In this document: one piece after another, positions 9,629 to 27,207 of the stretch | Layout of the letters: the number at the start of each line of letters is the position of its first letter | How positions within the stretch are numbered: the stretch's first letter is position 1 | Assembly (NCBI GenBank): GCA_964618975.1 | Contig: CAZUDI010000010.1 | Span: 4,378-68,377, forward strand | DNA from: an uncultured Bacteriovoracaceae bacterium | GTDB taxonomy: Bacteria > Desulfobacterota > Desulfomonilia > UBA1062 | Direction of reading: 5' to 3' | Length of the DNA stretch: 64,000 nucleotides | Position numbers and translations under genes: made by a program | The notes under the pieces: generated by a model | Database searches by the model: none | The model's input: the letters and a program-made list of their open reading frames with translations, nothing else | Told to the model about the DNA's origin: nothing

Positions 9629-9863
9629 AACGCCCCCCGTCTTTCGTCGCTTTGCCGGAACCCGTGTCTGACGAATAATTCAGAAGCACGAAGAGGAACA
9701 CGGAGTGGGCAAGACCGGGCTGCACACTCCGCACTATGTGAAATAATATGGGTAAGGTAACCTTCAGACCTGGAAAGTCAATATTGATGATTCGCGCGTG
9801 TAAGCGGCGCAGGTATTACCTCAATCGGTCGGATGATCGTCTGTCTTAACGTGATGCGGCGTA

Positions 9864-9905
9864 CCCTTCCCGGTGAATGCACTAAACATGCATTCACCGG
9901 GAAGG
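9864..9905. terminator. 18-bp perfect-stem hairpin, likely terminator of the DRTGG/nfn transcription unit
   Basis: cccttcccggtgaatgca-ctaaaca-tgcattcaccgggaaggg. Confidence 0.55.
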
Positions 9906-9942
9906 GGAAGACATCATAGTGTGCGTCCTTACAAGGTCTGCC

Positions 9943-10311: not shown

Positions 10312-10324
10312 ATCCTTACTTCCC

Positions 10325-11731: not shown

Positions 11732-11732
11732 A

Positions 11733-12584: not shown

Positions 12585-12602
12585 AAAGCCCTCCCTCTTT
12601 CC

Positions 12603-13190
12603 CTATCGTTTTTCCAAAGCTGCAAACAGACCGGTGAGAAGCCCCAGCGTCAGGAATGCACCGGGGGGCAGAATCATGACCAGTACCGGCTGAAAGGAGC
12701 TCCCGAAGATAGCCATATCGAAGATGGTACCGTTGCCGAACAGCTCGCGTATACTGCCCAGGATAACCAGGGCCAGGGTGAAACCCATGCCCATGCCGAT
12801 CCCGTCCGCAATCGAGGGCAGCAGGGAATTTTTCGAGGCAAAGGCCTCGGCCCGCCCCAGGATGATGCAATTCACCACGATAAGGGGGATGAACAGCCCC
12901 AGAGAGTGGTGCAGGCTTCGGAAATAGCCGCTCATCACCAGATCCACCACCGTCACGAAGGACGCGATGATCACGATGAAGACCGGAATACGCACCTTAT
13001 CCGGTACGAGGGGCCGTACGAGAGAGACCACCCCGTTAGAACATACCAGCACGAAGGTAGCCGCCAGTCCCATGCCCACTCCGTTGATCGCATTCGTGGT
13101 GACAGCGAGCACCGGACACATGCCGAGCACCAGCACAAACACCGGGTTTTCTTTCCATATTCCCTTGGTGAGTTCCTTACTGAACGACAT
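12603..13190 (-). CDS. rnfE: Rnf electron transport complex subunit E
   Basis: Start placed at the ATG preceded by GGAGG (MSFSKELTKGIWKENP...). RnfE/RnfA-family polytopic protein. Confidence 0.9.
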   Translation of the reverse strand: MSFSKELTKGIWKENPVFVLVLGMCPVLAVTTNAINGVGMGLAATFVLVCSNGVVSLVRPLVPDKVRIPVFIVIIASFVTVVDLVMSGYFRSLHHSLGLFIPLIVVNCIILGRAEAFASKNSLLPSIADGIGMGMGFTLALVILGSIRELFGNGTIFDMAIFGSSFQPVLVMILPPGAFLTLGLLTGLFAALEKR

Positions 13191-13752
13191 GTGCGCCTCC
13201 GAGAATCTGTGCCTTGGTCTCGGCATACCGATCAAGACCCTCTTTGACCGCCGCGGTTACCGCCCGCGGAGAGATGGTCGCGCCGGAGATCTGCTCGAAA
13301 TCGCCGCCATCCTTTTTCACGGCCCAGTTGACGTTGTCCAGGGTCTTGCCCTTGTACTGACCCTTGAACCTGTCTTCGGCGATCTTTGATCCCAGCCCCG
13401 GGGTCTCCTTCTGTTCCAGAATGCCGATCCCGATAATATTTCCTTCGGGCTGTACCCCTACCAGAACCCTGATCAATCCGCTGTAGCCCTTCTCCGTGGA
13501 GGTTTCGAAGGCCACCCCGTTGATGTCCGCTCCTGATCGGGAAAGATAGTATACCCTGTCCCCGACGGTAACCGTATCATTGTCGGGCTCGTTGTCATGC
13601 TCAGGCAACACCAGGTTCAGGGCCCGGAGTTTTTCCAGTTTGTCCTGATAGGCCCGCGCTCCGCGGGTGGCATCGTTCACGAATGACAGGCAAAGGCCGG
13701 ATATCATGCATACCACCGTCAAAACCGTTATGAGTTTCACCACTTCCTTCAT
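13177..13752 (-). CDS. rnfG: Rnf complex subunit G (FMN-binding)
   Basis: N-terminal transmembrane segment and an FMN-binding domain with the conserved SGATISPRAV motif. Confidence 0.9.
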   Translation of the reverse strand: MKEVVKLITVLTVVCMISGLCLSFVNDATRGARAYQDKLEKLRALNLVLPEHDNEPDNDTVTVGDRVYYLSRSGADINGVAFETSTEKGYSGLIRVLVGVQPEGNIIGIGILEQKETPGLGSKIAEDRFKGQYKGKTLDNVNWAVKKDGGDFEQISGATISPRAVTAAVKEGLDRYAETKAQILGGAHVVQ

Positions 13753-13755
13753 CGC

Positions 13756-14733
13756 TTACGCTCCAAACTTCCCTGGCCTGGTCGCCTTGTTGATCAGCGG
13801 CACAAAGGCGTTCATGATGAGGATGGCGAAGGAAACCCCTTCGGGGTAGCCTCCCCAAAGCCTGATGACCACGGTAATCAGGCCGCAGCCGACGGCAAAG
13901 ATGATCTTGCCGGAATTCGTGATCGGCGAGGTGACCATGTCCGTAGCCATGAAAAACGCGCCGATCATCAGTCCGCCGGAGATCATGTGAAAGGCCGGAT
14001 TTGCATAGAGAGTGGGGTCGATGAGCCAGAAGATGCCCGTAAAAAGCGCCACACTGCCGATGAAGCACACCGGGATATGCCAGGTTATGATGCGCCGCGC
14101 AATCAGGTAGATGCCGCCTATGATGAGTGCCAGGGCCGATATCTCACCCAGGGAACCCCCCACGTTCCCCAGGAAGGGATCCATGAGGCTGATCCCGGGG
14201 GCGGACTCAAGGCTTCCGTGCTCGAAAACGGCGTTCTTGAGCGCCCCCAGTGGGGTGGCGCTGCTCACCGCGTCGGTGCCCTGCTGGAAGAAGAAGGCCC
14301 GCGGGGCTGCCCAGGTGGTCATCTGCACCGGGAAGGAGATCAGCAGGAAGACCCGCGCCACCAGCGCCGGATTGAAGGGATTGTTGCCGAGTCCGCCATA
14401 GACGTGTTTGCCGAGACCCATGGCGATCACCGACCCGAGCACCACCAGCCACCATGGCGCCCCCGACGGCAGGTTCATCGCCAGCAGCAGACCGGTCAGA
14501 GCCGCGGAACCATCCGAGATGGTGATCGTCTTGCCGATGAGCTTCTGAATCAGGGCCTCTGAGGCTACACAGGTGACCACACAGAGGACGATGACCATCA
14601 GGGCCGGCAGGCCGAAAAAGTACAGGCCCACCAAGGCGCCGGGGATCAAGGCGTAGATCACTTGGCGCATGATCCACGGTATATCCTCAGGGGAATGTAC
14701 ATGTGGCGAACTGGAAATGTATAACTCTTTCAT
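13756..14733 (-). CDS. rnfD: Rnf complex subunit D
   Basis: NqrB/RnfD-family membrane protein, 325 aa. Confidence 0.9.
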   Translation of the reverse strand: MKELYISSSPHVHSPEDIPWIMRQVIYALIPGALVGLYFFGLPALMVIVLCVVTCVASEALIQKLIGKTITISDGSAALTGLLLAMNLPSGAPWWLVVLGSVIAMGLGKHVYGGLGNNPFNPALVARVFLLISFPVQMTTWAAPRAFFFQQGTDAVSSATPLGALKNAVFEHGSLESAPGISLMDPFLGNVGGSLGEISALALIIGGIYLIARRIITWHIPVCFIGSVALFTGIFWLIDPTLYANPAFHMISGGLMIGAFFMATDMVTSPITNSGKIIFAVGCGLITVVIRLWGGYPEGVSFAILIMNAFVPLINKATRPGKFGA

Positions 14734-14734
14734 C

Positions 14735-16054
14735 TCATGCCCCTTTTTTCTTGGCCGCCGCGGCCCTCTGCAGCGCCTTCAGATGCTTTACGAAATGGAC
14801 GATCGGACGGTGGGCAGGACAGACGTAGGTGCAACTGCCGCATTCCACACAATCGAGGAGATCGTAGGCCAGGGCATCTTCAAACCGTCCCTTCTCGCCG
14901 CATTTGCTCAGGGTAGAGGGGATCAGGCGCATGGGACAGGCCTCGACACAGCGGCCACAGGCGATGCATGAGGCAAAGTAACTCAGGTCGGTCTCTTCAG
15001 CGGTGAGGACCAGCACCCCCGAGGTCCCCTTCATGACGGGAATGTCCGTAGTGTACTGGGCAATGCCCATCATGGGACCGCCATAGATGATCTTGGCCGC
15101 CTCTTTAAGACCGCCACAAAATTCCAGGATCTCGCTTAGGGGCGTACCCACTCGCACCCGCAGGTTGCGAGGCTCGGCGATCCCCCGCCCGGTCACCGAG
15201 GTGATACGCTCAATCAGGGGCAGGCCTTTAGCGCAGGCGTCCCAGACCGCGGCCACGGTCCCGGTGTTCTGGACCAGGGCCCCCACGTCCATGGGGAGCC
15301 CCCCCGAGGGGACCTCCCTGCCCGTGATGGCGTTGATGAGCTGTTTTTCCGCCCCCTGCGGATATTTCACCTTCAGGGCCTCGACCCTGATCCCGGAGGG
15401 GACCTTCTCCCGCATGACCTTGATCGCTTCGGGCTTGTTGGCCTCGATCCCGATGACGGCGCTTCCAAGGCCCAGAATTCTCATCACCACCTGGATGCCG
15501 GCAATGACACGGTCCGGTTCTTCAAGCATGAGCCTGTAGTCCGCCGCCAGGTAGGGCTCGCACTCGGCCCCGTTGATGATGAAGGTATCGATGGGCTTGT
15601 CCTTGGGGGGAGAGAGCTTCACGTGGGTGGGAAAGGTGGCCCCCCCCATTCCCACCAGCCCTGCGGACTGTATGATCTTCAGGAGTTCCTCGCTGCTGAG
15701 CGCCAGGGGGTCCCGACTCAAGGGCAGGCCGTCCGCCCACTGATCATGACCGTCAGCCTCGAGAACGACGCAGGGGGCGAGCATCCCGGTCACGGGATGG
15801 ACGCAGCGGGCGATCTCCCTGATGGTCCCCGAGGTGGGGGCATGGACCGGGGCCGAAACAAACCCCAGGGGTTCGGACAAGACCTGCCCCTTCTTAACCG
15901 TGTCGCCCTTATGGACCACGGGCTTGGAAGGCGCACCAATGTGCTGTTGCAGGAGTATCCGATATTCCGCAGACAGCGGCATATTGACGAGCTCACACCC
16001 TTTTACGAGGTCCTTGTTTCCGGGTGGATGGACCCCTCCCTTGAATGTCTTCAT
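14735..16054 (-). CDS. rnfC: Rnf complex subunit C
   Basis: NADH-binding region and two 4Fe-4S motifs (CIACGRCVEACP, CVECGSCTYVCP). Confidence 0.9.
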   Translation of the reverse strand: MKTFKGGVHPPGNKDLVKGCELVNMPLSAEYRILLQQHIGAPSKPVVHKGDTVKKGQVLSEPLGFVSAPVHAPTSGTIREIARCVHPVTGMLAPCVVLEADGHDQWADGLPLSRDPLALSSEELLKIIQSAGLVGMGGATFPTHVKLSPPKDKPIDTFIINGAECEPYLAADYRLMLEEPDRVIAGIQVVMRILGLGSAVIGIEANKPEAIKVMREKVPSGIRVEALKVKYPQGAEKQLINAITGREVPSGGLPMDVGALVQNTGTVAAVWDACAKGLPLIERITSVTGRGIAEPRNLRVRVGTPLSEILEFCGGLKEAAKIIYGGPMMGIAQYTTDIPVMKGTSGVLVLTAEETDLSYFASCIACGRCVEACPMRLIPSTLSKCGEKGRFEDALAYDLLDCVECGSCTYVCPAHRPIVHFVKHLKALQRAAAAKKKGA

Positions 16055-17022
16055 GTATCAAGCCTCTCTATGGCGTCAGATGGGCACTTCGCCATGCAGA
16101 TCCCACAGCCGATGCACCGGCCGGTATCTACAGTGTAGGCCGCCTTGGGTCTTCCGGAGATGGCGTCCACAGGGCATACCTGCGCACAGATGCTGCATCC
16201 CTTGCATTTCTCTTCAATCACCCGCACCCTTGCTGGCGACACCGTGAGCTTGATCACACCCGTAGGACAGACACCGATACACAGTCCGCATCTGCGGCAC
16301 CGTTCCTGATCGATGAAGGCCGCGGCCGTCTTCGAGACCGTGATGGCATCATAGGGGCAAATCTGCTCGCAGAAACCGCATTTGATGCATCCCACCGCAC
16401 ACAAGGTCTTCATCTCCTTGGCGGGATCCTGGGAAATACACGCGACACACGCCACCGACCCGGCCGGAACGAGTTGGATGATGTGTCGCGGACAGGCATC
16501 AAGGCACTTGCCGCAGCCCACACAGACCTCTTTGTCCACATGCGGCAGGCCGTCCTCGCCCATGTGGATGGCCGCAAACGGGCAGGCCTCCACGCAACTT
16601 CCCAACCCGAGGCAGCCGAAGGCACACGCCTTTGATCCGCCGGCAATGAGCTGGGCCGCCTGGCAGTCCCGGGGGCCAACGTACTGATAGCGGTTTGCGG
16701 CCTGCTCCGGCGTGCCCGTACATCGTACGGCCGCCACCAGTGCCCCGCCCCCCCCGAGCTCCCGCTCGAGTATCTCCGAAAGCACCTTGATGGCCGCCTC
16801 GTTGACCGCCGGACAGGCCATTTCGGTCGCAGGATTGACGGTCAATTCGTGGGCAAAGGCCGCACAACCGGCATATCCGCAGGCTCCGCAGTTTGCCCCG
16901 GGGAGCTGATCGAGAACCGCCTTTTCTCGGGGATCCATCTTTACGGCAAAGGTTACCGCCGAGATCCCCAGGATCAGGGCGGCAATGAAGCCGATTCCAC
17001 CTACCATCACGACAGCTGTCAT
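16051..17022 (-). CDS. rnfB: Rnf complex subunit B (polyferredoxin)
   Basis: N-terminal transmembrane segment plus multiple CxxCxxCxxxCP ferredoxin motifs. ATGA overlap with rnfC. Confidence 0.9.
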   Translation of the reverse strand: MTAVVMVGGIGFIAALILGISAVTFAVKMDPREKAVLDQLPGANCGACGYAGCAAFAHELTVNPATEMACPAVNEAAIKVLSEILERELGGGGALVAAVRCTGTPEQAANRYQYVGPRDCQAAQLIAGGSKACAFGCLGLGSCVEACPFAAIHMGEDGLPHVDKEVCVGCGKCLDACPRHIIQLVPAGSVACVACISQDPAKEMKTLCAVGCIKCGFCEQICPYDAITVSKTAAAFIDQERCRRCGLCIGVCPTGVIKLTVSPARVRVIEEKCKGCSICAQVCPVDAISGRPKAAYTVDTGRCIGCGICMAKCPSDAIERLDT

Positions 17023-17023
17023 C

Positions 17024-17599
17024 TTATTTCACCAGTCCCGAAAATCCCATGAAGGCCAGGGAAAGGATCCCTGCGGTAATGAGAGCGATGGGCGTTCCCT
17101 TAAAGGCCTTGGGTATGTTGTTGTATTCAAACTCCTCACGCATTCCGGCAAACACGACCAGGGCGATCCCGAAGCCCAGCGAGGCCCCGATGGCGAAGAT
17201 ACACGCATCCAGGAGGGAGTACTTGAGCTGAATGTTCAGGATGGCGGCGCCGAGCACCGCACAGTTGGTCGTGATCAGCGGCAGGAAGATGCCCAGGGCC
17301 TGATAGAGCGGAGGGCTAACGCGCTGAATGATCATCTCCACGAGCTGAACCAGCGAGGCAATCACCAGGATGAAGGCGATGGTCTGAAGATACTGCAGAT
17401 CGAATCGGATGAGCAGGTAATAGTTGATCAGCCAGGTGACGAAACACGCCAGCGTCAGCACGAAGATCACGGCCATGCTCATCCCCACGGCGGTATCGAT
17501 CCGTTTGGAAACCCCCATAAACGGACAGATACCGAGGAAGCGCGAGAGCACGAAGTTGTTCACCAATGCAGCGCCAACGATCAGCAAGACATAATACAT
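17024..17599 (-). CDS. rnfA: Rnf complex subunit A
   Basis: RnfA/NqrE-family membrane protein, 191 aa. First gene of the rnfABCDGE operon. Confidence 0.9.
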   Translation of the reverse strand: MYYVLLIVGAALVNNFVLSRFLGICPFMGVSKRIDTAVGMSMAVIFVLTLACFVTWLINYYLLIRFDLQYLQTIAFILVIASLVQLVEMIIQRVSPPLYQALGIFLPLITTNCAVLGAAILNIQLKYSLLDACIFAIGASLGFGIALVVFAGMREEFEYNNIPKAFKGTPIALITAGILSLAFMGFSGLVK

Positions 17600-17632
17600 A
17601 AGTCTCTACCCCCCAGTTTTCAGGCCCTTCTG

Positions 17633-17660
17633 ATTATTCTAAAGATTCCTTTCCTGTCAA
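17633..17660 (-). promoter_or_regulatory. sigma70-like promoter of the rnf operon
   Basis: Minus-strand TTGACA (revcomp of 17655-17660), a 16-nt spacer, then AATAAT (revcomp of 17633-17638). It lies about 35 nt upstream of the rnfA ATG in an AT-rich island. Confidence 0.5.
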
Positions 17661-17679
17661 GATTTCTTTATAATTACTT

Positions 17680-17703
17680 GTTTAAAGATGACAAAATACT
17701 TCC
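17680..17703 (-). promoter_or_regulatory. GTTTAAAG-N8-ATACTTCC motif copy upstream of the rnf promoter
   Basis: gtttaaag-atgacaaa-atacttcc, 19 bp upstream of the -35. Same motif and orientation as 27225, 27293 and 29603. Confidence 0.5.
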
Positions 17704-17900
17704 AGCTAATGAATGGCTATTCAATTCAAGTATCTTCCTGCAGTGTTCCTCCCTCGTGCAACTCATACTTCAGGAAAATGGATCGGGGTTACTTCAGCTG
17801 CGCATGAAGGCATACGCAGGAGGTAGTGTGCCGGGGGGGTGTCCAGACAAAGACACAGGATCACCCCCCGGCCGAGATTCATGCCATCTAGACGGAAACT

Positions 17901-19202
17901 CTACTCATCCTCTCTCGGACCCGTCATGGCCGCATCATCCTGCACCGCACTGATCTGCCGGTAGACACCCCGGGCGAGGATCAGGGCAATGAAGAAGAGC
18001 AGGATCAGTGACACGATGACCACCGTAATGCTGGATTTCTGCCAGCGTGCAACCTTCTGCTGGATTTCCTTTACCTTTTCCTGACTGAGGTTGTGATATC
18101 GGTCGATATCCACCATCATGCCGACCCAACCGAAGCCCTGAGGCTTGCTGAGTCCGGCCCCATAAAAGGCGATCGGGGCATAGGCCGCAAAGATGCGGCT
18201 GTTCCCCAGGGTATAAGTGAAGGATCCGTTTTTGCCTTCCGAGGCCAGGGCATGCATCCGCGGATAATTCTCGTCCAAGAATCCCATCTTGGTGACATTC
18301 ATGGCCCCGTTGCCCGAGGCGAGCAGGGCCTCATAATTGTCCGCGTCCATGTCAGATACGGGCTGCTGATTCTCCCCGAAACCCTTGATCAGATAATCCG
18401 CCGGATGGGACAACACATAACCCTCCCGATCCACCAGGAAGGCATAGTTCTTATCCTCCATCTGCACGGCAGCATATACCTTACCGGCCTCGGTAGGGAT
18501 AATATGATCCGTGAATTCCATAACATGTACGAAATTCAGGGCCAATTCCACCACCCCGGCAAAACCCGTAGAATCAAAAACCGGCGCCGCCATGCGGATA
18601 ATGCCGTCAAAACGCTTGCCGCTATCGAACTCCGCCTTGCTCACATGCCGACCGGTTACGGGTCCCATGAAAAATTCACCGGGCGGCAGGGTCTTGGCCT
18701 GATCGAAATACCCCTCGCCCTGAACACCTTCCACGCCGGCCACATTCCGCAACTCACTAGCCGGCACTGGGCCATCGGCGTTGACCTTGAGGATCTCCAT
18801 ACCCTCCTTGTCGACGAAGGCGATCTCACGATAGATGGGGACGGGAATCTTCACTATACCTACATCGGAGGCCTTCACAACCCCCCTCACGTTGGAATTC
18901 AAGAACGTCGTGTATGACTCTACGTCCCGCGGAAGAATCGAGGCAATCCGGATGTCCTTTTCGCGTTCACTGAAGAACTGGGCGATCGCCTCGGCAATAT
19001 TGGCGGCACGCCCTTCGATGAGCTGCTTCTGACTCTCATCAAGAATACGCAGGTTCGCCTGCGTCGCTTCCTCCCCCACCTTCACCACCCCCTTGCTGAT
19101 CACCACTCCGGTAATAGCCAGGGGCAGCACGATGAGAATGATGAAGCTCAGCGCGATGCCTGCGAAGCTGAAACGGGTCTTTCCTTCCTGGTCCATATCC
19201 AT
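17901..19202 (-). CDS. Cache-like periplasmic sensor domain membrane protein with no output domain
   Basis: Two transmembrane segments (about residues 12-35 and 395-420) bracket a periplasmic domain of roughly 330 aa with a double-Cache-like pattern. The cytoplasmic tail is only about 20 aa. Confidence 0.65.
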   Translation of the reverse strand: MDMDQEGKTRFSFAGIALSFIILIVLPLAITGVVISKGVVKVGEEATQANLRILDESQKQLIEGRAANIAEAIAQFFSEREKDIRIASILPRDVESYTTFLNSNVRGVVKASDVGIVKIPVPIYREIAFVDKEGMEILKVNADGPVPASELRNVAGVEGVQGEGYFDQAKTLPPGEFFMGPVTGRHVSKAEFDSGKRFDGIIRMAAPVFDSTGFAGVVELALNFVHVMEFTDHIIPTEAGKVYAAVQMEDKNYAFLVDREGYVLSHPADYLIKGFGENQQPVSDMDADNYEALLASGNGAMNVTKMGFLDENYPRMHALASEGKNGSFTYTLGNSRIFAAYAPIAFYGAGLSKPQGFGWVGMMVDIDRYHNLSQEKVKEIQQKVARWQKSSITVVIVSLILLFFIALILARGVYRQISAVQDDAAMTGPREDE

Positions 19203-19379
19203 CTCCTGACCATGTTATTCAATTCGCAGCACAATGAATAACAAGCACTCTGTTGACCGGCGCGAGGGCGACCCCATGGATGGCAGGAGGGATGAGCCGC
19301 ACCTCACCCCCCGCGCATATCGATCCGGTGTTCCCGACGGTCCTCTTCCCTCTCGCGGAATCATATCTCCCTATCTGCA

Positions 19380-19739
19380 CTACCCCAGGATAATGGCCTT
19401 GTATGGATTGGCATAGAGAATAATGAGCGTGATAACCAGAGCATAGATGGCGATGGACTCGGTCATGGCCAACCCGACCATCATGGTCAGCATGATCTTG
19501 CCCTGAGAGCCAGGGTTCCGGCCTACGGCCTCAGACGCACCCGAGGTTGCATTTCCCATTCCAGCACCAGCGCCGATCGCACCGAGGCCCATACAGAGAC
19601 CTGCACCGAGGATCGATGCCGCGACATAGATGATCTTGGCCCAGTCGACAAATCCACCGGCCACATCAGCCGCCATAGCTGCACTGGAAACCGCAAACAG
19701 CATGAACGCCGCAAACACAAAAACTCGTAATCCTCCCAT
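19380..19739 (-). CDS. atpE: F0F1-type ATP synthase subunit c (proteolipid) with N-terminal extension, orphan gene
   Basis: GLGAIGAGAGMGNATSGASEAVGRNP...MTESIAIYALVI c-subunit hairpin. Start at the ATG with an AAGGAGA RBS (the ORF track's 19745 is a GTG two codons upstream). No other atp genes are nearby. Confidence 0.7.
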   Translation of the reverse strand: MGGLRVFVFAAFMLFAVSSAAMAADVAGGFVDWAKIIYVAASILGAGLCMGLGAIGAGAGMGNATSGASEAVGRNPGSQGKIMLTMMVGLAMTESIAIYALVITLIILYANPYKAIILG

Positions 19740-19915
19740 TAGCACTCTCCTTGTTAGTTAATATATTATACGCATGAATTCAGAGCATTATTCTGAACCA
19801 CGATTCATTAAATACACGATAGGGCAGCCTTATGCAAGTGAAATTTGCCGTGATATGAAAAATGATTCAGGGCTCAGAATGAGGGAATATCCCCTCATGA
19901 CAGGCCCTTAACCCC

Positions 19916-21469
19916 TCAGCGTTCCAGGAGAGCTCCGAACAGATCCTTGTTAAAAAAGGGCTCGTCCTCAAGACTGGCCCGGGGTATTTTGCCGGCCCTG
20001 ACGGCGAACGCCAAGCTCTCCTCGAGAGGAAAATACTCGCCCTGCAGGGAGGTGGCCTGCCCTTTGATATAGTAAATCTTGCCGTCTCTGATATAGGTCT
20101 GCACGCGCTTGGTCCCGATGAGCATCTCCCAGATGAGGATCTGCCTCTCATCGGTCCGGGCGCCAACCATGCGCTGGGAGAACACCCCCACGAGGGAGCG
20201 GGCGAACATGGCCTTCAGGTAGTCGTCTGAGAGCGTGGAGAGATACTGCTCCAGGGCGCTGAACACATCCGTAGCCGTAATGCCGGCGATGACGAGGATG
20301 CCCTTCTGGGCGGCGATGATGGATGCCTCCACCATGGAGCGGTTCTTGAGATTGGAGAGCACGAGCACATCCGGATCGTGCCGAAAGACGTGTTCGAAAA
20401 GCTGGGCGGAGTCCTTGCTGGTGTCGCGTCCGATCTCGCGCTGGTTGACATTGGAACGCTTGTGGTAATGCAGATATTCGATGGGGTCTTCGAAGGTGAT
20501 GATGTTACAGGTCCGGCTGGCGTTGATATGATCGACGAGGGCGGCGAGGGTGGCATCCTTGCCGTGTCCTCCGGGGGAACTCACCAGGAGGACACCCTTG
20601 CGCTCCAGTAGTGCAAGCAACCCTTCGGGGAGACCGAGGGCGGCGCTGCTAGGTATATCCTCCACGATCTTGCGTGCGGCCACCGCAATCTCCCCGCCCC
20701 GGTGCATATAGACATTCATGCGGTAGCGTCCCGTGCCGGCCCGGTTATAGGTATATTCGACCTCCTTGTTCTCACGCAGTTCGGCCTGCTGTTCCTGCGG
20801 TAGGATCTCCCGGATCAGGGAATCCATGAGCTCGGGGGTCACCATAGGCATGTTGCTTCTTACCAGGGTTCGGCCGCGCCTTAAGGCCGGCGGGATCCCG
20901 ATGGTGATGTGCAGGTCAGAATATTCGGGTTGCTCCAGGAGCCGCAGGATGTTGTCCGGGCTCATGTCCTGCACGGTTATGGAAGGGGTGCTCCGGGGCA
21001 CGTCCTTCAACACGAGGTCCTCCCGGCCGCAGCCGGATCGTTCTAGGGCCTTCAGGATATCCCGGATCTGCACCTGAGAGGCAAGCACAGGGGACACCTC
21101 GCGGTTGATCAGAAACTTGACGTTCTCCACCGAGACGTAATTCAGCGGGTCGGCAAAGGCCACGGTGGCAAGGCGCTCCTTGACCGCCAGGGGCACGACC
21201 AGCATTTCGTGCATGCGATCCTGGGGCAGAAGCACCTGGGCATCCTTCCTGATAACCCCCTCTTCCATGTCCAGGGTAGGCACATTGATGAGATTCTTGA
21301 GGATGCCGAGCACCTGGTCCTCTCTGAGGTAGGCCAGATGGATCAGGGTTTCCCCGAGCTTGAGATTGTGCTGCTGGGAAACCTCCAGGGCATGACGCAG
21401 CCGGTGTTCATCGATCAGACCCAGCTCGACGAGGACATCCCCCATGCGCCGGTTGTTTCTCTCTCCCAT
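19916..21469 (-). CDS. MshEN (c-di-GMP-binding) N-domain fused to a PilT-like type-IV-pilus ATPase domain with degenerate catalytic motifs
   Basis: N-terminus carries two MshEN repeats (LGDVLVELGLIDEHRLRHALEVSQQ, LGETLIHLAYLREDQVLGILKNL). The Walker A is SPGGHGKDAT instead of GPTGSGKST. The Asp and His boxes are degenerate (DPDVLVLSNLKN, VIAGITATD). Confidence 0.85.
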   Translation of the reverse strand: MGERNNRRMGDVLVELGLIDEHRLRHALEVSQQHNLKLGETLIHLAYLREDQVLGILKNLINVPTLDMEEGVIRKDAQVLLPQDRMHEMLVVPLAVKERLATVAFADPLNYVSVENVKFLINREVSPVLASQVQIRDILKALERSGCGREDLVLKDVPRSTPSITVQDMSPDNILRLLEQPEYSDLHITIGIPPALRRGRTLVRSNMPMVTPELMDSLIREILPQEQQAELRENKEVEYTYNRAGTGRYRMNVYMHRGGEIAVAARKIVEDIPSSAALGLPEGLLALLERKGVLLVSSPGGHGKDATLAALVDHINASRTCNIITFEDPIEYLHYHKRSNVNQREIGRDTSKDSAQLFEHVFRHDPDVLVLSNLKNRSMVEASIIAAQKGILVIAGITATDVFSALEQYLSTLSDDYLKAMFARSLVGVFSQRMVGARTDERQILIWEMLIGTKRVQTYIRDGKIYYIKGQATSLQGEYFPLEESLAFAVRAGKIPRASLEDEPFFNKDLFGALLER

Positions 21470-21730
21470 GACCTACCCCCCGTATTCTTTATTGTCCCTA
21501 TTATCGGAAACAAGGGCCCTGGGCCTTAATGGATTCTCCCCCAAGATGGGGCCTCCCTGCTGCACAACCCTGGCAGGGGTCCTGTTGTATGCATATCGCC
21601 CGTGACCAACCCCGAGGCCCCCAGGGCCTTCATTCATATTTCCTGTGGCACTTGGTTGGCGTCAATGATATGAAAAGCTTGGGCATGAATGCTAGGGCAG
21701 GCCTCGGAATCCCTGCTCGTCACAGACGGA

Positions 21731-21832
21731 GGGGCACGCGGCCCTTAGCGGATCATGGGTATGAACCCCAGGAAAAACCTGCCCCCCCCTCGACGCTGCA
21801 AGAGGCAGGGAATGCGGCCCATAGCGATTAAA
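21731..21832 (+). repeat. full copy of the dispersed intergenic repeat family, ending 3 nt before the histidine kinase start codon
   Basis: ggggcacgcggcccttagcg-gatcatgggtatgaaccccagg-...-ctcgacgctgcaagaggcaggg-aatgcggcccatagcgattaa. Confidence 0.85.
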
Positions 21833-21835
21833 ACT

Positions 21836-22762
21836 ATGAAAAATACCAAGAGATGGCCATCCATCACCATCTTCGTGATCATGCAGGTCGCCTGGGTGTC
21901 CGTTGTGACGCTCTGGATCATCTGGTATATCAAATATTGGTATGTCAAATACCACTATGCCCTCATCGAACACATCGGGGCCTGGGACATTGTCGTCATC
22001 GTCGAGGTATCCATCCTGCTGCTGCTGATTCTCATCGGCATCGTGATCCTCTTCGTACTTTACCAGCGCCAGGTTACCCTCACCCGCACCCAGACGCACC
22101 TCATCTCCGCCATTACCCATGAATTCAAGACCCCCCTGGCCACGACCCAGCTCTACCTGGAGACCATGCTGAAGCGGGAGCTGCCCGAGGAAACCCGGCA
22201 ACAACTCCTCACCGGCCTGCTCTCGGAAAATCAGCGGCTTAAATCCCTGGTGGAAAACTATCTGGAAAGCGCGCGACTGAGTTACCGGAACCGCTCTCAG
22301 AATCTCTCCCCACAGGCTATCAGCGAGATCATCTCGCGCTTTCTCAAGCGCCATGAGACGCTCGTCGGCCCGGTCGAGGTCTCCCTCGAGATCGAGGAGG
22401 GCCTGCTGGTCAACGTCGATGAAGACGCCTTTGATCTCGTCCTTTCCAACCTCACCGAAAACGCCATCCACTATTCCTCCGGTAGGGCACGCATTGACAT
22501 CCGTGCCTGGTCGGAGGCCAAGAGGACCTACATCGATTTCTCCGACGCGGGCATCGGCATCCCCCGCGAGCGGCATAAGGATGTATTCAAGATGTTCCAG
22601 CGGCTCCCGGAGGGGATCGCCCTGTGGGGAACAGGCACCGGTATGGGGTTGTATGTGGTCAAGGAAATTATCAAGGCCCATGGGGGCAAGATCAGGGTCA
22701 GGCCATCCTCGTCTGAGAACGGAACCTCGTTCCTCATCCAACTGCCGAGGGCGACAGCATGA
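21836..22762 (+). CDS. sensor histidine kinase
   Basis: Start at ATG 21836 (MKNTKRW). The upstream part of the long ORF is repeat-encoded. Two transmembrane segments, H-box ITHEFKTPL, N/G1/G2 ATP-binding motifs. Confidence 0.85.
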   Translation: MKNTKRWPSITIFVIMQVAWVSVVTLWIIWYIKYWYVKYHYALIEHIGAWDIVVIVEVSILLLLILIGIVILFVLYQRQVTLTRTQTHLISAITHEFKTPLATTQLYLETMLKRELPEETRQQLLTGLLSENQRLKSLVENYLESARLSYRNRSQNLSPQAISEIISRFLKRHETLVGPVEVSLEIEEGLLVNVDEDAFDLVLSNLTENAIHYSSGRARIDIRAWSEAKRTYIDFSDAGIGIPRERHKDVFKMFQRLPEGIALWGTGTGMGLYVVKEIIKAHGGKIRVRPSSSENGTSFLIQLPRATA

Positions 22763-23448
22763 GCATCAGATGGAGGGTACTCGTCATCGAGGATGACCAG
22801 GCGCTCGCCCTGGGACTGCGCATCAATCTGGAGGCGGAAGGTTATGCGGTGGTCCACGTCCTCACCGGCGAAGAGGGCCTTTCCGTAGTGCAGGACGGCG
22901 GTGTCGATCTGGTAGTGCTCGATCTCATGCTGCCGGGCATGGACGGCATCCAGACCCTGCAACGCATCCGGCGTGACGATCCGCGGATCCCGGTGCTGAT
23001 CCTGACGGCCAAGTCGGCCATGGAGGACAAGGTCACGGGGCTGCGCGCCGGTGCGGATGACTACCTCACCAAACCCTTCCATCTCGAGGAATTTCTCCTC
23101 AGGGTGAAGCGCATCCTCGACCGCTACGAATGGTACCGCTCCAGCGATATCCTGGAACTGGGCGCAGCCACGGTCGATTTCTCCACCCTCGAGGCCGTCG
23201 ACCCCCAGGGTCATAGACATCGCATCACACCGCACGAGGCCCGCCTGATCCAGTATCTCGTGGCCTATCAGGAACGCATCGTCACCCGGGCGGAACTCCT
23301 CAAAAACGTATGGGGCCTGGATCCCTCGCTGGAAACGCGCACGGTGGATACCTTTATCTCCCGTATCCGCCGCTATCTGGAACCCACCCCCTCACGGCCC
23401 ACGCACATCATCAGCATCCGGGGGAAAGGCTACCGCTACATCCCCTAA
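22759..23448 (+). CDS. OmpR-family response regulator
   Basis: Receiver domain (VLVIEDD...DLVVLDLMLPGMDG) plus a winged-helix trans_reg_C domain. ATGA overlap with the kinase gene. Confidence 0.9.
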   Translation: MSIRWRVLVIEDDQALALGLRINLEAEGYAVVHVLTGEEGLSVVQDGGVDLVVLDLMLPGMDGIQTLQRIRRDDPRIPVLILTAKSAMEDKVTGLRAGADDYLTKPFHLEEFLLRVKRILDRYEWYRSSDILELGAATVDFSTLEAVDPQGHRHRITPHEARLIQYLVAYQERIVTRAELLKNVWGLDPSLETRTVDTFISRIRRYLEPTPSRPTHIISIRGKGYRYIP

Positions 23449-23472
23449 GGAATCAAGGAGGACGCCATTTTC

Positions 23473-24219
23473 ATGAATTCTCTCAATGGATATGAACGCT
23501 TCAAAAAGTCTCTGGCCCGCTCGACCAGCCCGGCGGTCAACGATTTCCTCGTCTCGCGTCCCGATACGCTGCCGATGATCATCACGGGCGCTCCCAGTAC
23601 CAAGATCGATCTCACCACCATCACCACGGTGGGCATCGAAAATTTCTCGGTCAAACTCGTCCATGGTTTCGCCGTGATAGATGCCTCCCTGCACTGTCTG
23701 CTGGACAGTGCGCAGTATCTCGAACAACCCCCTTCTGGCACCTCACATCTCCACCGCATGCGCTACGTCTATATGCACATCGAACAGTATCTCAACGAGA
23801 CCTGCCTGCTCCGCGGCCGCATCAACGACTACCTGAAAGTGATCCCCCGGCTGTACCGCAGAGATCCGTGGTATCAGAGCCTGCTGGAGACCACGGCCAC
23901 GCTTACGGCACGTGTGAACGCCACCTTTGATCTCATTCTGAACGATGGCGACAATCATCTCGAAGAGACGCGTCAGAGGGATGCGCGCCTGGACACGCTA
24001 ATGGCCTTCGGCGCCTATCCGATCATCAAAACAGAGGCCTTCACCTCCATGTATACACGCGAGTTCCAGGCCATTCATGCACAATGGCTTCACCATGTCA
24101 TCGAGTACAATCAGCACATCACGGATCTGGCGGATTTATGCTTCGGGCAGCTCCATACCACCCTCTTCGATACCGAAGAGGCCCTGATCTATCCCAAACG
24201 TCTCGAGGTCTGCATCTGA
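23473..24219 (+). CDS. hypothetical protein (third gene of the two-component operon)
   Basis: GGAGGA RBS, 248 aa, no recognisable motif. Its amino-acid composition is protein-like rather than GC-skewed. Confidence 0.55.
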   Translation: MNSLNGYERFKKSLARSTSPAVNDFLVSRPDTLPMIITGAPSTKIDLTTITTVGIENFSVKLVHGFAVIDASLHCLLDSAQYLEQPPSGTSHLHRMRYVYMHIEQYLNETCLLRGRINDYLKVIPRLYRRDPWYQSLLETTATLTARVNATFDLILNDGDNHLEETRQRDARLDTLMAFGAYPIIKTEAFTSMYTREFQAIHAQWLHHVIEYNQHITDLADLCFGQLHTTLFDTEEALIYPKRLEVCI

Positions 24220-24322
24220 AGACAAGCCCTTCCCCCGCCGCGCACGAGAATATCCCATGCACCCAGGACCGCCCCCGATGCAACCCGTGGGCGGCAGGCC
24301 GCACATCCGGTGCATCTCGCCT

Positions 24323-24351
24323 TTGACAGAGCGGCGGCAATGCTTTATAGT
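24323..24351 (+). promoter_or_regulatory. near-consensus sigma70 promoter of the merR-family gene
   Basis: TTGACA at 24323-24328, an exact 17-bp spacer, then TATAGT at 24346-24351. An AT-rich dyad (tagctttaagctta) lies between the -10 and the RBS. Confidence 0.6.
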
Positions 24352-24391
24352 ATAGGTTATAGTTTAGCTTTAAGCTTAATAAGGAGATCCC

Positions 24392-25090
24392 ATGGGCATC
24401 AAGATCGGTGAGATTGCCAGGAGGAGCGGTGTCCCACCGTCGACCATCCGATACTACGTGCGTCAAGGTCTGCTGCCGGAGCCGGACAAGGTGAACAAGA
24501 GCATGGCCTACTACGACGAAGGCTGTATCGAGAAGATCCAGGCCATCCGTTATCTGCAGGAGACACGCTACTTCCCCCTGTCCGTCATCTGCAATATCCT
24601 GCGCCGAATGAACGATGGCCTCAGCCTGGAGGAGGCGGAGTCCATCGAAGATGCGGTCTTCGGTACCCAGGGAGACCTCATTGAGAGGGAGGGCTTCCTG
24701 CGGGCCACCGGACTGACGGGCGAGGAACTGGACCAGGCCGAAGGCATGGGTCTGCTCCTGCCCTATATCCAGGAACCCGGGCGCACCCGCTACAACCAGG
24801 AGGATATCCGTTTCGGCAAGGAGATCCTCAAGGCCTACCTCGACCTGGGAGGTGAGTTCAAGGACCTGGATTTCTACGTCACCCTCGGCAAAGAGATCAT
24901 GGACCACGAACAGAGCCTGCGTAAGAAGATGGTCCGCGGAAAAAACAAGAAGGAGAACATCCTCATCACCGCCGGCATCTCCAAGATCGCTGACTTCTTA
25001 AGGGGATACATCCTGAGACGACTATTTCAACGCACCGTCCAGGAAAGCATCGTCAAGAGTCTCGATAAGGACGCATCGCCTCCACGCTAA
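24392..25090 (+). CDS. MerR-family transcriptional regulator
   Basis: N-terminal MerR HTH (IGEIARRSGVPPSTIRYYVRQGLLPEP) and a long C-terminal effector domain. Confidence 0.85.
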   Translation: MGIKIGEIARRSGVPPSTIRYYVRQGLLPEPDKVNKSMAYYDEGCIEKIQAIRYLQETRYFPLSVICNILRRMNDGLSLEEAESIEDAVFGTQGDLIEREGFLRATGLTGEELDQAEGMGLLLPYIQEPGRTRYNQEDIRFGKEILKAYLDLGGEFKDLDFYVTLGKEIMDHEQSLRKKMVRGKNKKENILITAGISKIADFLRGYILRRLFQRTVQESIVKSLDKDASPPR

Positions 25091-25133
25091 AGCGTTTCCC
25101 CCCTTGTGGCCCATACAGACGCAATGTCGTCAC

Positions 25134-25160
25134 GGCTCAAGGGTCTGCCTCCCTTGAGCC
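25134..25160. terminator. hairpin between the convergent merR-family and fadH-like genes
   Basis: ggctcaaggg-tctgcctc-ccttgagcc. Confidence 0.45.
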
Positions 25161-25188
25161 ATGGCAAGGCACTGGGCACATCCAAGGC

Positions 25189-27207
25189 TCAGCCCTTGGG
25201 CGCCTCCCCGGCAACCCGATACCCGGCCTCAAAGCCCTCATGGATGGCCTCGAACGCCTTGCGGGGACGGCGTGCATCGCCCACCGTGACAACCTGCGGC
25301 ACATGGGGACGCACCTTCTCCACCAGGGAGTCATCCCTGCGTGTCCCCACGGCCAGGACCACCGTGTCACAGGCAATAAGGCGCTCAGATCCATCCTGTT
25401 CCACCAGGACACCCTCAGGAACGATCGCACTGGCCTTCGTACTGACCAGGGTATGCACATGGTAGCGCCTGAGCATCTGCAGTTCCACCCAGCGATTGCT
25501 GAGCCCGATATCGGTCCCCAGGCGCGGAAGCATTTCGATGATCGTCACCCCTTTGATGCCGCAGGTCGCGAGCCTTTTCAGCGTCTCCACCTCCTCGGCC
25601 TGATGCAGGAAGAGAAACTCGAGCGTCGCCGCATCGATCGTGCCGATCTGGGCCAGCAGGATCCCGGTCTCAATGCCCACCGCCCCGCCGCCAATGATCA
25701 CCACCTCCTTTCCTACGCTGGCCCGGCCTGCCAACACATCCCAGGCCTGCACCACATTCTGCCCCTCGGCTCCGGGGATGCCCGGCATGATGGGGCATCC
25801 CCCCGTGGCCACGACCACGGCCATGGGTCTTTCCTGTCCCACGCTGGCCGCATCCGCCCGGGTGCCAGTCCTGATTTCAACGCCGCTCAGGTGTGCCTGA
25901 CGCGTCAGGACCCGCACGAGGGTGTTGAATTCATCCCGCGACTGAAGCGCACCGGCCAGGTGCAACTGACCGCCCGGACGTTCACTTTCCTCAAAGAGCA
26001 CGACTCGCAGTCCCGCAGTGGCAGCGCTGATGGCGGCCGAGAGTCCCGCCGGCCCACCGCCCGCCACCACCAGCGTCTGCCCCTTTCCGGCCCCGGCCCG
26101 GGAAGGGAATTCCTCCTCGCGGCCCGCCCGGGGGTTGACCATGCAGGCCACCGACCCCAGACTTACGAGCCTGTCGAAACAGCCCTGGTTGCACCCGATG
26201 CAGGACACGATATCCTCGCATCTTCCCGCACGCGCCTTGTTCGGGAGCTCCGGGTCGGCGATGAGGCCACGGGCGAAGCCCACCATGTCCGCCAGGCCTT
26301 CGCGGATGATGGCCTGTGCCGCGCGGGGATCCGTGATGCGGTTGCAGGCGATCACGGGTTTTTTCACCGCCTCCTTGATGCCGCGGGCAAGGTAGACGTA
26401 AGCCCCGCGGGGTACCTCCATGGGTATCTGGGGAATACGTGTCTCATGCCAGCCCCCGGTGACATTGAAGGCGTCGACCCCGGCGTGCTCTAGCGCAAGG
26501 GCAAAGCTTTGCGCCTCGCGGTTGGTGTGGCTGCCCGGGATGAAGTCGTTGCCCGCGATCCTGAAAATCACGGGATAACCCTCGCCCACCGCGCCCCGGA
26601 TGGCCTCGGCCACCTCGATACCGAAACGCATACGGCGCTTCAGATCACCTCCGTAGGCGTCCCCCCTCAGATTCGTGACCGGCGATAGGAACTGCGAGAT
26701 CAGATAGCCAGCCGAGGCGATAACCTCCACCACATCCAGACCGGCCGCCTTGACCCGAGCCGCCGCCGTGGCATAGGCCTCGATGACGCCGTGAATCTCT
26801 TCAAGGGTCATCTCCCGCGGCTCTTCCCTGGTGAAATGGGAGGTCACGGCCGAAGGGGCCAGGGCCTGCCGGCCGATGAGGGCCGAGTGGGCGTAGCGTC
26901 CTGCCTGATATAGCTGGGCACCTATGCAGGCACCATGGGCCTTGACCGCCAGCGCCAGCCGCCTGAGCCCGGGGATGAAACGCTCATCGTCCAGGCCGAT
27001 GAGCCACTCTCCCCCGCTGTAGGCGTCGATGCGGCAGCCGCCGATCAGTATCAGGCCAGCCCCGCCGCGAGCGCGCTCCGTATAGAAGGCGATGAGCCGA
27101 TCGGTCACCTCGCCCGTGGGGGTATAGTTGAGGTGCATGGCCGGCATGACAATCCGATTCCTTAACATGGCATTCCCGATGCAAAGCGGGGAAAAAAGGG
27201 CATCCAT
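25189..27207 (-). CDS. 2,4-dienoyl-CoA reductase-like flavoenzyme (OYE-family FMN domain plus FAD/NAD(P)-binding domain)
   Basis: 672 aa. N-terminal Old-Yellow-Enzyme TIM-barrel motifs, a 4Fe-4S Cys cluster (CIGCNQGC) and a C-terminal GGGPAG dinucleotide fold, matching FadH/enoate reductase architecture. AGGAGG RBS. Confidence 0.88.
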   Translation of the reverse strand: MDALFSPLCIGNAMLRNRIVMPAMHLNYTPTGEVTDRLIAFYTERARGGAGLILIGGCRIDAYSGGEWLIGLDDERFIPGLRRLALAVKAHGACIGAQLYQAGRYAHSALIGRQALAPSAVTSHFTREEPREMTLEEIHGVIEAYATAAARVKAAGLDVVEVIASAGYLISQFLSPVTNLRGDAYGGDLKRRMRFGIEVAEAIRGAVGEGYPVIFRIAGNDFIPGSHTNREAQSFALALEHAGVDAFNVTGGWHETRIPQIPMEVPRGAYVYLARGIKEAVKKPVIACNRITDPRAAQAIIREGLADMVGFARGLIADPELPNKARAGRCEDIVSCIGCNQGCFDRLVSLGSVACMVNPRAGREEEFPSRAGAGKGQTLVVAGGGPAGLSAAISAATAGLRVVLFEESERPGGQLHLAGALQSRDEFNTLVRVLTRQAHLSGVEIRTGTRADAASVGQERPMAVVVATGGCPIMPGIPGAEGQNVVQAWDVLAGRASVGKEVVIIGGGAVGIETGILLAQIGTIDAATLEFLFLHQAEEVETLKRLATCGIKGVTIIEMLPRLGTDIGLSNRWVELQMLRRYHVHTLVSTKASAIVPEGVLVEQDGSERLIACDTVVLAVGTRRDDSLVEKVRPHVPQVVTVGDARRPRKAFEAIHEGFEAGYRVAGEAPKG

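Follow-up and report, generated by a model that had tools for sequence, protein, structure and literature searches.

The described proteins that stand closest to the subject of this work fall into two groups. The first is formed by the MshE/PilB-type proteins (V. cholerae MshE, PA14_29490, T. thermophilus PilF and the PilB proteins of M. xanthus and C. thermophilum), hexameric ATPases of the secretion superfamily whose N-terminal MshEN (GSPII) domain contains two motifs of 24 residues and which work, their catalytic motifs being intact, as GspE/PilB extension or secretion motors. The second are PilT and PilU (TIGR01420; structures 5fl3, 6ojx, 2ewv, 3jvv and 9n32), of the retraction type. In this second group the Walker B glutamate and the His box are required, as mutations in either abolish the function of PilT from P. 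aeruginosa and M. xanthus. A study of the PilT paralogs of M. xanthus reported intact motifs in all of them, and in the literature we found no description of an inactive PilT paralog or of an MshEN-PilT fusion, nor any text pairing 'PilT' with 'pseudo-ATPase'. Dead enzyme domains that live on as ligand-controlled interaction modules are represented by FimX, LapD and PelD, receptors of cyclic di-GMP (c-di-GMP) built on a degenerate EAL or GGDEF domain that is itself the c-di-GMP site. In this work we have analysed a stretch of 64,000 nucleotides (nt), called here the window, from an uncultured Bacteriovoracaceae bacterium that GTDB places in the Desulfomonilia, UBA1062 (assembly GCA_964618975.1, contig CAZUDI010000010.1, positions 4,378 to 68,377 of the forward strand). 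It encodes a protein, hereafter pPilT, in which an MshEN-type domain precedes a PilT-like region with degenerate ATPase motifs. Judged by its lost catalytic residues, its retained fold and the purifying selection acting on it, the view of pPilT as a pseudoenzyme is well supported.

The PilT-like core and its ATPase motifs

The open reading frame (ORF) of pPilT has a G-rich ribosome-binding stretch 5' of its start codon, and an identical protein has been annotated as a gene product on a public metagenome contig (ENA). The ORF is genuine and the feature lies far above chance expectation. Its motifs were matched to those of PilT through HMMER alignments to the solved structures 5fl3, 2ewv and 2gsz, and motif residues were counted over 66 full-length members of the family. 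The parts of the gene, numbered along the window, are the following:

19916-21469, minus strand: pPilT ORF, 517 amino acids (aa), uninterrupted from ATG to stop (ORF call and translation, Pfam, NCBIfam)
21032-21454, minus strand: MshEN domain, residues ~6-146, a four-helix N-subdomain and an alpha/beta C-subdomain (structure alignments, AlphaFold2)
19919-20956, minus strand: PilT-like region, residues ~172-517, a PAS-like N-terminal domain, a RecA-like ATPase domain and C-terminal helices (TIGR01420, PDB, Foldseek)
20549-20578, minus strand: degenerate Walker A, residues 298-307, SPGGHGKDAT (PilT GPTGSGKSTT; HMMER alignment)
20474-20503, minus strand: intact Asp box, residues 323-332, IITFEDPIEY (PilT IITIEDPIEF; HMMER alignment)
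20342-20377, minus strand: degenerate Walker B, residues 365-376, DPDVLVLSNLKN (PilT DPDVIMVGEMRD; HMMER alignment)
20267-20305, minus strand: degenerate His box, residues 389-401, KGILVIAGITATD (PilT TGHLVLSTLHTLD; HMMER alignment)

A preliminary description of the locus, made from the sequence alone, had proposed an MshEN N-terminus and a PilT-like C-terminal domain, an architecture borne out by Pfam, NCBIfam and the combination of AlphaFold2 and Foldseek. The Pfam models MshEN (PF05157) and T2SSE match residues 62-144 with 40.7 bits (cutoff 23.1) and residues 286-436 with 69.9 bits, respectively, and NF053729, the NCBIfam model of the MshE-related c-di-GMP motif, covers residues 8-58 with 47.6 bits (cutoff 38). 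The PilT/PilU model TIGR01420 (pilT_fam) extends over residues 173-471 with 234.7 bits, below its cutoff of 319.1, and because the PilB model of NCBIfam reaches 94.6 bits the core is assigned to the PilT (retraction) type. Matches to PilT entries of the PDB go down to E=1e-54. A single-chain AlphaFold2 model, with the alignment of 66 sequences as input, gave a mean predicted local distance difference test score (pLDDT) of 89.4. Foldseek searches of the PDB with this model retrieved PilT2 of T. thermophilus, PilT4 of Geobacter, the PilT proteins of A. aeolicus and P. aeruginosa, and PilU, with target-normalised template modelling (TM) scores of 0.84-0.89 and root mean square deviations of 2.5-3.7 A over ~355 columns at 25-33% identity. 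On the strength of these scores, the model gives the C-terminal 350 residues as a complete PilT fold and the N-terminal 150 as the two-subdomain fold of MshEN. The predicted helices at residues 9-15, 21-34, 38-44 and 50-61 make up the four-helix bundle of the latter (pLDDT 86-97), and the whole N-terminus can be aligned with MshE (5htl), PilF (6f8l and 9g1w) and M. xanthus PilB (3jc8).

Within this fold, the Walker A of pPilT carries a serine for the first P-loop glycine (S298, in 65 of the 66 members) and an aspartate for the Ser/Thr that follows the lysine (D305; 53 members have Asp and 9 Asn at this position), leaving the consensus GxxGxGK[ST] unmatched by SPGGHGKD, with the lysine itself retained (K304, 63/66). 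The Walker B reads DPDVLVLSN against the atypical DPDhhhhGE of PilT, that is, Gly-Glu has become Ser-Asn and the catalytic glutamate corresponds to N373. This last position is occupied by Glu in 9 of 10 proteins of the sister clade described below and in 6 of 6 PilT proteins. In the family of pPilT it is the most variable of all motif positions (N in 35, D in 8, K in 7, H in 5, G in 5 and S in 3 members), with Glu absent from these six commonest classes and one member (P0065) reading VTELKG, next to a position 372 that is either Ser (46) or Thr (16). In the His box, GILVIAGITAT, the two conserved histidines are replaced by I391 (63/66) and T398 (where the family has N in 48, S in 8 and L in 6 members), and G396 and D401 are found in all 66. 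The Asp box satisfies the pattern ExxDPIE, its two glutamates being conserved in 65 (E327) and 61 (E331) members. The sequences SPGGHGKDAT and VIAGITATD, quoted in the preliminary description as an altered Walker A and a His box devoid of histidines, have held at residue level. The residues it offered as an altered Asp box were read correctly and labelled wrongly, since DPDVLVLSNLKN is the Walker B and the true Asp box is intact. The realignment to the PilT structures leaves Walker A, Walker B and His box degenerate, all three.

Together with the fold, pPilT shares with PilT and PilU the Asp box, the NQRE motif, Q343 (66/66) and the conserved arginines R248 (65/66), R250 (66/66) and R344 (66/66), besides the P-loop lysine. 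It departs from them by an extra N-terminal MshEN region of 170 residues, by the three degenerate motifs, by a score under the TIGR01420 cutoff and by a partial AIRNLIRE motif. From the MshE/PilB-type proteins it differs in having a PilT-type core with lost catalytic residues, and in the replaced terminal glutamine of both MshEN motifs. By sequence, then, the protein fails defining features of both parent families, namely the cutoff and the three motifs of PilT/PilU and the terminal glutamines of MshEN. As the Walker A Ser/Thr, the catalytic glutamate and both histidines are missing in essentially all 66 members, and new residues have become conserved in their place, the degeneration reads as a trait of the family, unlike random decay.

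A protein search returned ~70 clusters at 49-61% identity, with full-length members of 509-531 aa and named members from metagenome-assembled genomes (MAGs) of Desulfomonilia, 'Deltaproteobacteria' or Desulfobacterota. With one genome taken per species (GTDB representatives), pPilT was found in 37 genomes at 50-62% identity, including that of Candidatus Phosphitivorax anaerolimi Phox-21, and among the genomes searched its clade is made up of Desulfomonilia MAGs only. When 1.84 billion representatives were searched exhaustively with a profile, the family came out as a single 50%-identity representative with 832 bits, the next protein scoring 433 bits. The reading frame is unbroken at every locus examined. 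Mean column identity is 66% over 24 members, with many invariant positions, and Nei-Gojobori dN/dS values (ratios of nonsynonymous to synonymous substitution rates) for close pairs are 0.05-0.12, equally low in the MshEN and the PilT-like halves, all of which points to strong purifying selection on the clade.

Another, uncharacterised group of MshEN-PilT proteins comprises P0072-P0081 and the Nitrospirota/Thermodesulfovibrionales loci L046-L088; its members, 519-542 aa long, match pPilT in domain architecture and approximate length and are 29-35% identical to it. Unlike pPilT, they keep intact Walker A (GxxGxGK[ST]) and Walker B (GE(M/L)RD) motifs and, in most cases, the His box. When the PilT domains were placed in a neighbour-joining tree, the degenerate family formed a single clade on a long stem, with the intact group as its sister; this placement is suggestive only, because the tree was built without bootstrap. 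Moreover, eight further full-length MshEN-PilT-like representatives (P0355, P0362, P0364, P0377, P0397, P0399, P0450 and P0464) have independently degenerate motifs, be it Walker A, Walker B or the His box, and canonical MshEN motifs with the terminal glutamine. Inactive, c-di-GMP-sensing PilT-like proteins may thus constitute a recurrent, unnamed class, possibly overlooked because databases call the members 'twitching motility protein PilT'; the name 'TadA' is also found for proteins of the family. As for pPilT, we see a clean and conserved pseudoenzyme assembled from known parts, and not a new type of system.

Regarding its action, we consider it fairly probable, from the residues kept and lost, that pPilT is a functional but catalytically inactive PilT paralog with an MshEN-type domain, that is, a ligand-controlled, nucleotide-binding pseudo-ATPase working through protein contacts. 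The P-loop pocket would bind nucleotide without turnover, and the MshEN domain would bind c-di-GMP, probably more weakly than MshE does. From both predicted properties it would follow that the protein is a switch or scaffold acting by protein contacts, and not a motor. The parallel with FimX, LapD and PelD lies in the dead enzyme domain kept as a ligand-controlled interaction module; unlike in those receptors, the putative c-di-GMP site of pPilT is separate from the degenerate ATPase domain.

The MshEN domain and c-di-GMP

The two 24-residue motifs of the domain occupy the following positions:

21377-21448, minus strand: MshEN motif I, residues 8-31, RMGDVLVELGLIDEHRLRHALEVS, aligned to MshE R9-Q32
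21290-21361, minus strand: MshEN motif II, residues 37-60, KLGETLIHLAYLREDQVLGILKNL, aligned to MshE R38-Q61

They are separated by five residues, QQHNL, the same spacer length as in MshE (5htl alignment). Neither of them fits the strict consensus RLGxx(L/V/I)(L/V/I)xxG(L/V/I)(L/V/I)xxxxLxxxLxxQ or its extended form (R/K/L)LGxx(L/V/I)(L/V/I)xxG(L/V/I)(L/V/I)xxxxLxxxLxxQ (PMC11731258). Motif I deviates by L2M and Q24S, and motif II by G10A, a tyrosine at position 11 (where MshE itself has Phe), L17V and Q24L. When the relaxed pattern [RKPN]hGxxhhxx[GAS]hhxxxxhxxxhxx[QNKRYWST], used for database counts by Wang et al. 2016 (PMC5013675), was applied by eye, motif I fitted and motif II missed at the last position alone (L60). 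The 'two textbook MshEN repeats' of the preliminary description were therefore an overstatement, the strict consensus being missed in both copies through, among others, the glutamines turned into S31 and L60.

In MshE, the terminal glutamines form two hydrogen bonds each, to the ribose and the phosphate of c-di-GMP, and the single mutation of Gln32 shifts affinity by less than ~fivefold (PMC5013675). The change G11I in the same protein abolishes c-di-GMP binding. In the family of pPilT, the position-3 glycine of each motif (G10 and G39) is invariant and the hydrophobic triads are intact. At the solvent-exposed stacking position 1, residue 8 is limited to R/M/K/L and residue 37 to K/R/H, classes that agree with the extended consensus (R/K/L) of PMC11731258. 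D107, the counterpart of MshE D108, is conserved to at least 90%. With these residues in view we lean slightly towards c-di-GMP binding by the pPilT domain, probably with lower affinity than in MshE, as both terminal glutamines are gone. Of the 'c-di-GMP-sensing pseudo-ATPase' put forward in the preliminary description, the second half stands on motif loss, PilT fold and purifying selection; the sensing half is plausible, and weaker than claimed.

Several points weigh against pPilT being the ligand-controlled pseudo-ATPase of a pilus system that we propose. The terminal glutamine is replaced in both motifs across the family (position 31 is S in 36, A in 18 and Q in 8 members; position 60 is L in 65 and F in 1). 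In the GSPII-A domain of T. thermophilus PilF, restoring a perfect consensus was still insufficient for binding (PMC12002112). The conservation of MshEN positions may reflect folding and not ligand binding, since the core of the helix bundle includes most of the conserved ones. In the PilT-like half, the AIRNLIRE motif of PilT is only partially recognisable (KRVQTYIRD in the protein of the window, PRIQKYIRD in the family consensus), and some members may have weak residual ATPase activity, given the aspartate at the catalytic-Glu position in 8 of the 66. Finally, the 64-kb window contains no pilus gene, and the sole conserved genomic association of pPilT is with bioenergetic genes.

The points on the MshEN half are the natural ground for a different explanation, in which the MshEN-like domain has lost c-di-GMP binding and is a protein-interaction module like the homologous domain of GspE/XpsE, which would turn pPilT into a doubly degenerate structural adaptor. 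The ligand-contacting glutamines are replaced family-wide (S/A at 31, L at 60), at positions where the sister clade more often has Gln or a polar residue. Q61V is among the changes by which XpsE became non-binding (PMC5013675), and the GSPII-A domain of PilF, with H33 and R62 in place of both glutamines, does not bind either (PMC12002112). However, the single Gln32 mutation of MshE has the small effect mentioned above, and GSPII-A, with its S39 and A41 in motif II and its N-cap-extended helix 1, is unlike pPilT, which keeps K37 and G39. Moreover, neither the two glycines G10 and G39 nor the hydrophobic triads have changed, the NF053729 score exceeds the cutoff of that model, and the restricted surface stacking positions 8 and 37 and the conserved D107 are hard to ascribe to folding alone. 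On balance, we regard the loss of c-di-GMP binding as rather unlikely.

Neighbouring genes and possible partners

If pPilT is a switch or scaffold as proposed, its most likely partner, named here tentatively, would be the motor platform of a type IV pilus. A dead PilT-like ring or a mixed hexamer would fill the docking site of PilT or PilB and damp retraction at high c-di-GMP, as the natural counterpart of dominant-negative PilT mutants. FimX, one of the c-di-GMP receptors mentioned at the outset, acts on the pilus motor PilB (PMC5595344). In the genome of Ca. Phosphitivorax anaerolimi F81, the ortholog SCFA_v1_420036 coexists with a full pil gene set elsewhere in the genome, made up of pilM-like/N/O/P/Q genes and a pilB-pilT-pilC cluster adjoined by an HD-GYP response regulator (PMC7082340 supplement). 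The class therefore includes at least one organism equipped with a canonical PilT and a type IVa pilus, in which pPilT is an extra, divergent paralog. In the window, a scan of ~60 ORFs across the 64 kb detected no pil, gsp or tad gene and no further ATP-synthase gene, in line with the absence of flanking pilus and type II secretion genes claimed beforehand.

Some other genes touch on pili or c-di-GMP. In one sub-clade (P0046), the gene next after pPilT encodes a PATAN/DUF4388-DnaJ-TPR protein (L005, 9655-10986, plus strand; L043, 1091-2440, plus strand). PATAN regulators are reported to contact the pilus motor in Synechocystis (10.1101/2021.06.11.447907), and by this analogy the gene is a weak hint only of a pilus link. 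Within the window, two PilZ proteins are encoded, which indicates that the organism uses c-di-GMP. One is a fusion of a short-chain dehydrogenase/reductase (SDR) with PilZ (8483-9628, minus strand; adh_short at residues 11-202, PilZ at residues 282-369), a possible c-di-GMP-regulated enzyme from its domains. The other is a stand-alone PilZ protein of 128 aa (33447-33833, plus strand) just upstream of a gene for an FtsY-like SRP54 GTPase. Flagellar genes are also nearby, to judge from a protein with a FliK-like hook-length domain and a DUF2802/DUF6115 protein (6719-7908, minus strand).

The immediate neighbours of pPilT, an orphan ATP synthase c subunit and a Cache sensor in the preliminary description, were recovered as such with Pfam ATP-synt_C and dCache. 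Beyond them, the locus continues with rnfABCDGE and an nfnAB-like pair, absent from that description:

19864-19913, minus strand: terminator-like hairpin directly 3' of the pPilT stop, followed by AUCAUUUUUCAU (folding, alignment)
19809-19837, minus strand: promoter-like element of the c-subunit gene, TTGCAT-17 nt-TATTTA (conserved in an alignment of 18 loci; putative function)
19778-19798, minus strand: palindrome GTTCAGA-N7-TCTGAAT between this element and the c-subunit start (single match in the window)
19380-19739, minus strand: orphan F-type ATP synthase c subunit, 119 aa from ATG (Pfam ATP-synt_C, TIGR01260)
17901-19202, minus strand: dCache membrane protein, 433 aa, two transmembrane helices, no cytoplasmic output domain (weak Pfam dCache_1, AlphaFold2, Foldseek)
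17633-17660, minus strand: strong sigma-70-like promoter of rnfA, TTGACA-16-AATAAT, 11/12 matches (sequence match)
12603-17599, minus strand: rnfA, B, C, D, G and E (Pfam)
9943-12584, minus strand: nfnA-like and nfnB-like genes, then a DRTGG-domain protein (Pfam; same order at orthologous loci)

The c subunit scores 45.9 with TIGR01260 (cutoff 43.95) and has a signal-peptide-like N-terminus. Compared with the c subunit of I. tartaricus, it retains the ion-binding glutamate E65 as well as S66 and Y70 and has a methionine for Q32; Na+ specificity was discarded because this last change leaves the signature incomplete. The dCache protein has a periplasmic dCache fold and ~20 cytoplasmic residues (AlphaFold2 pLDDT 85), and its Foldseek matches are the dCache ligand-binding domains of kinases and chemoreceptors.

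The order pPilT, c subunit, dCache is found at 31 of the 31 species loci with sufficient downstream DNA, with near-constant spacers of ~145 nt (pPilT to the c gene) and ~182 nt, and the c-gene palindrome is still there in two loci cut off right after pPilT (L018 and L020). In the P0046 sub-clade (L005, L032 and L043) the c-dCache-rnf block adjoins pPilT on the opposite strand; locus L043, taken at one point for an exception to the synteny, was dismissed as such, its downstream genes being the same as in the L005 arrangement. Upstream of pPilT the genes vary among species, and at the loci of the intact sister group none of these neighbours, the c subunit and dCache included, occurs. After dCache, some species have rnfABCDGE-nfnAB-DRTGG and others go on directly with nfnAB-DRTGG. 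The rnf block (within 9943-17599, minus strand, in the window; loci L009-L045) is cleanly missing in, for example, L026, L030, L033 and L035-L041, which implies that the whole operon was gained or lost at a fixed site between dCache and nfnA. In F81, the orthologs of the locus are listed under 'Rnf1' (PMC7082340 supplement).

The same supplement lists for F81 two V-type ATPase gene sets and three of F-type, every one of the latter including an atpE (PMC7082340). With the other three atpE genes inside atp sets, the c gene next to pPilT is an extra orphan, the fourth F-type c, and the idea that it was the only F-type c gene of the organism, set apart from atpB, was rejected. In relatives from the Syntrophales, c genes do stand alone, and the atpZ-atpI-atpB set lacks c. 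In three of their loci (L092, 7566-9311; L095, 7562-9305; L094, 7409-9305) a c gene is followed after ~55 nt by an ortholog of dCache at 38-41% identity. This Syntrophales pair comes without pPilT, has a sigma-54 promoter and adjoins a sigma-54-dependent two-component system. The pair thus has a longer history and a wider distribution than pPilT, which became associated with it in the Desulfomonilia only. To our knowledge, no function has been described for a gene pair of a c subunit and an output-less dCache protein.

Whether this constant neighbourhood is also a transcription unit can be judged from the elements between the genes. The hairpin after pPilT folds with -23 kcal/mol (z = -1.6) and has a T-run after its stem; at orthologous loci the stems differ, are equally complementary and lie in the same place (for example GTACGAGCCCTCGTT/AACGAGGGCTCGTAC in L009). 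The palindrome, as TGATTCAGA-N7-TCTGAAT, is exact in 31 loci, once per locus and always at the same position, and is a candidate for the operator of some regulator or for a hairpin of the 5' untranslated region. One species has a G-U-compatible change in its stem. A sigma-54 promoter for the c gene of the window was also considered and set aside, since the GG-to-GC spacing is wrong, and a proper TGGCAT-N5-TTGCA is present only in the c-dCache operons of the Syntrophales. In the most active sample set of F81, the values were 1-4 for pPilT (SCFA_v1_420036), 19-22 for the c gene, 57-63 for dCache and 1-8 for rnfA (PMC7082340 supplement), and over 15 samples the values of pPilT were ~10-20x under those of the c gene and of dCache, which rise and fall together. 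These two genes behave as one unit, and pPilT is a separate, weakly expressed one; an operon of pPilT with the c subunit is rejected as the leading interpretation by the hairpin, the c gene's own promoter and palindrome and the 10-20 fold gap in values.

All these data bear on the second candidate for the partner of pPilT, the products of the adjoining c-subunit and dCache genes, which we consider an unlikely choice. Here pPilT would work with its neighbours by docking on the c-ring and/or the dCache module, and would link ion flux, or the Rnf/ATP-synthase energy economy of these syntrophic bacteria, to the c-di-GMP or ATP status. The order kept in all 31 species loci, and next door in the P0046 sub-clade, amid varying upstream genes speaks for such a liaison, as do the near-constant spacers, the orphan status of this fourth F-type c gene in F81 and a dCache protein devoid of an output domain of its own. 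But the terminator-like hairpin, the conserved promoter-like element and palindrome of the c gene, and the low F81 values of pPilT separate it from these genes, the c-dCache pair lives without it in the Syntrophales under a sigma-54 promoter, and the dCache protein offers just ~20 cytoplasmic residues for contact. Moreover, we know of no PilT-family protein that binds a c-ring. Even less probable, and to be taken as speculation, is that a dead PilT-like hexamer, the orphan c-ring and the dCache protein form one Desulfomonilia-specific membrane complex gating ion flow, in which cytoplasmic c-di-GMP/ATP status and a periplasmic dCache ligand would regulate ion flow through a c-ring outside any ATP synthase. 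Such a complex, if true, would tune the Rnf/Nfn energy economy of syntrophs and would be the first link between the secretion-ATPase family and an F-type rotor ring.

Other observations in the surroundings are of a more general kind. Upstream of pPilT lies a divergent pair of genes for a histidine kinase and an OmpR-type response regulator (21755-23448, plus strand), also seen in the nearest relatives (L020 and L027). A kinase-regulator pair stands upstream, on the same strand, at many Nitrospirota loci with intact MshEN-PilT proteins (L050, L052, L054, L058, L067 and L082). The likeness across the groups may be generic, as the similarity is low (22-38%). Three ORFs of 397-508 aa (39211-40608, 41329-42855 and 43039-44232, all minus strand), without a Pfam match and overlapping annotated-looking genes of the other strand, are more likely the shadow ORFs of a GC-rich genome than genes. 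A search for riboswitches or other known RNAs in positions 9000-26000 gave nothing credible.

Residual activity, decay and biological meaning

Two further explanations concern the ATPase half itself. pPilT could be an active ATPase that relies on non-canonical residues, for example with D305 for Mg2+ and an Asp-box glutamate as the base, and the retention of the P-loop lysine, of both Asp-box glutamates and of the conserved arginines, as well as an Asp305 shared by 53 of 66 members, would suit such an enzyme. We hold it to be very improbable, since the catalytic-Glu position tolerates residues as different as N, D, K, H, G and S, both histidines of the His box are gone, and in PilT itself mutations of the Walker B glutamate or the His box abolish function, apart from the score under the PilT/PilU cutoff. 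A decaying, non-functional PilT relic, to which the lost motifs and the very low transcript values in the F81 dataset might point, is refuted by intact frames in 37 species genomes, the dN/dS values, the column conservation and the confident AlphaFold2 model.

The preferred reading, a functional pseudo-ATPase under ligand control, has consequences for both families from which pPilT derives. The MshEN domain, so far known as a c-di-GMP sensor on active extension or secretion motors, is also found on PilT-type retraction cores, and one bacterial class has retained the MshEN-PilT fusion after the loss of the ATPase chemistry. If c-di-GMP is bound, pPilT would be a natural 'dominant-negative' PilT and a new route from c-di-GMP to pili without a direct change in motor activity. 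The setting is that of syntrophic Desulfomonilia, for whose interspecies electron transfer pili and aggregation are important. And beyond the pilus, the strict adjacency of pPilT to an extra c subunit and an output-less dCache protein offers a concrete lead.

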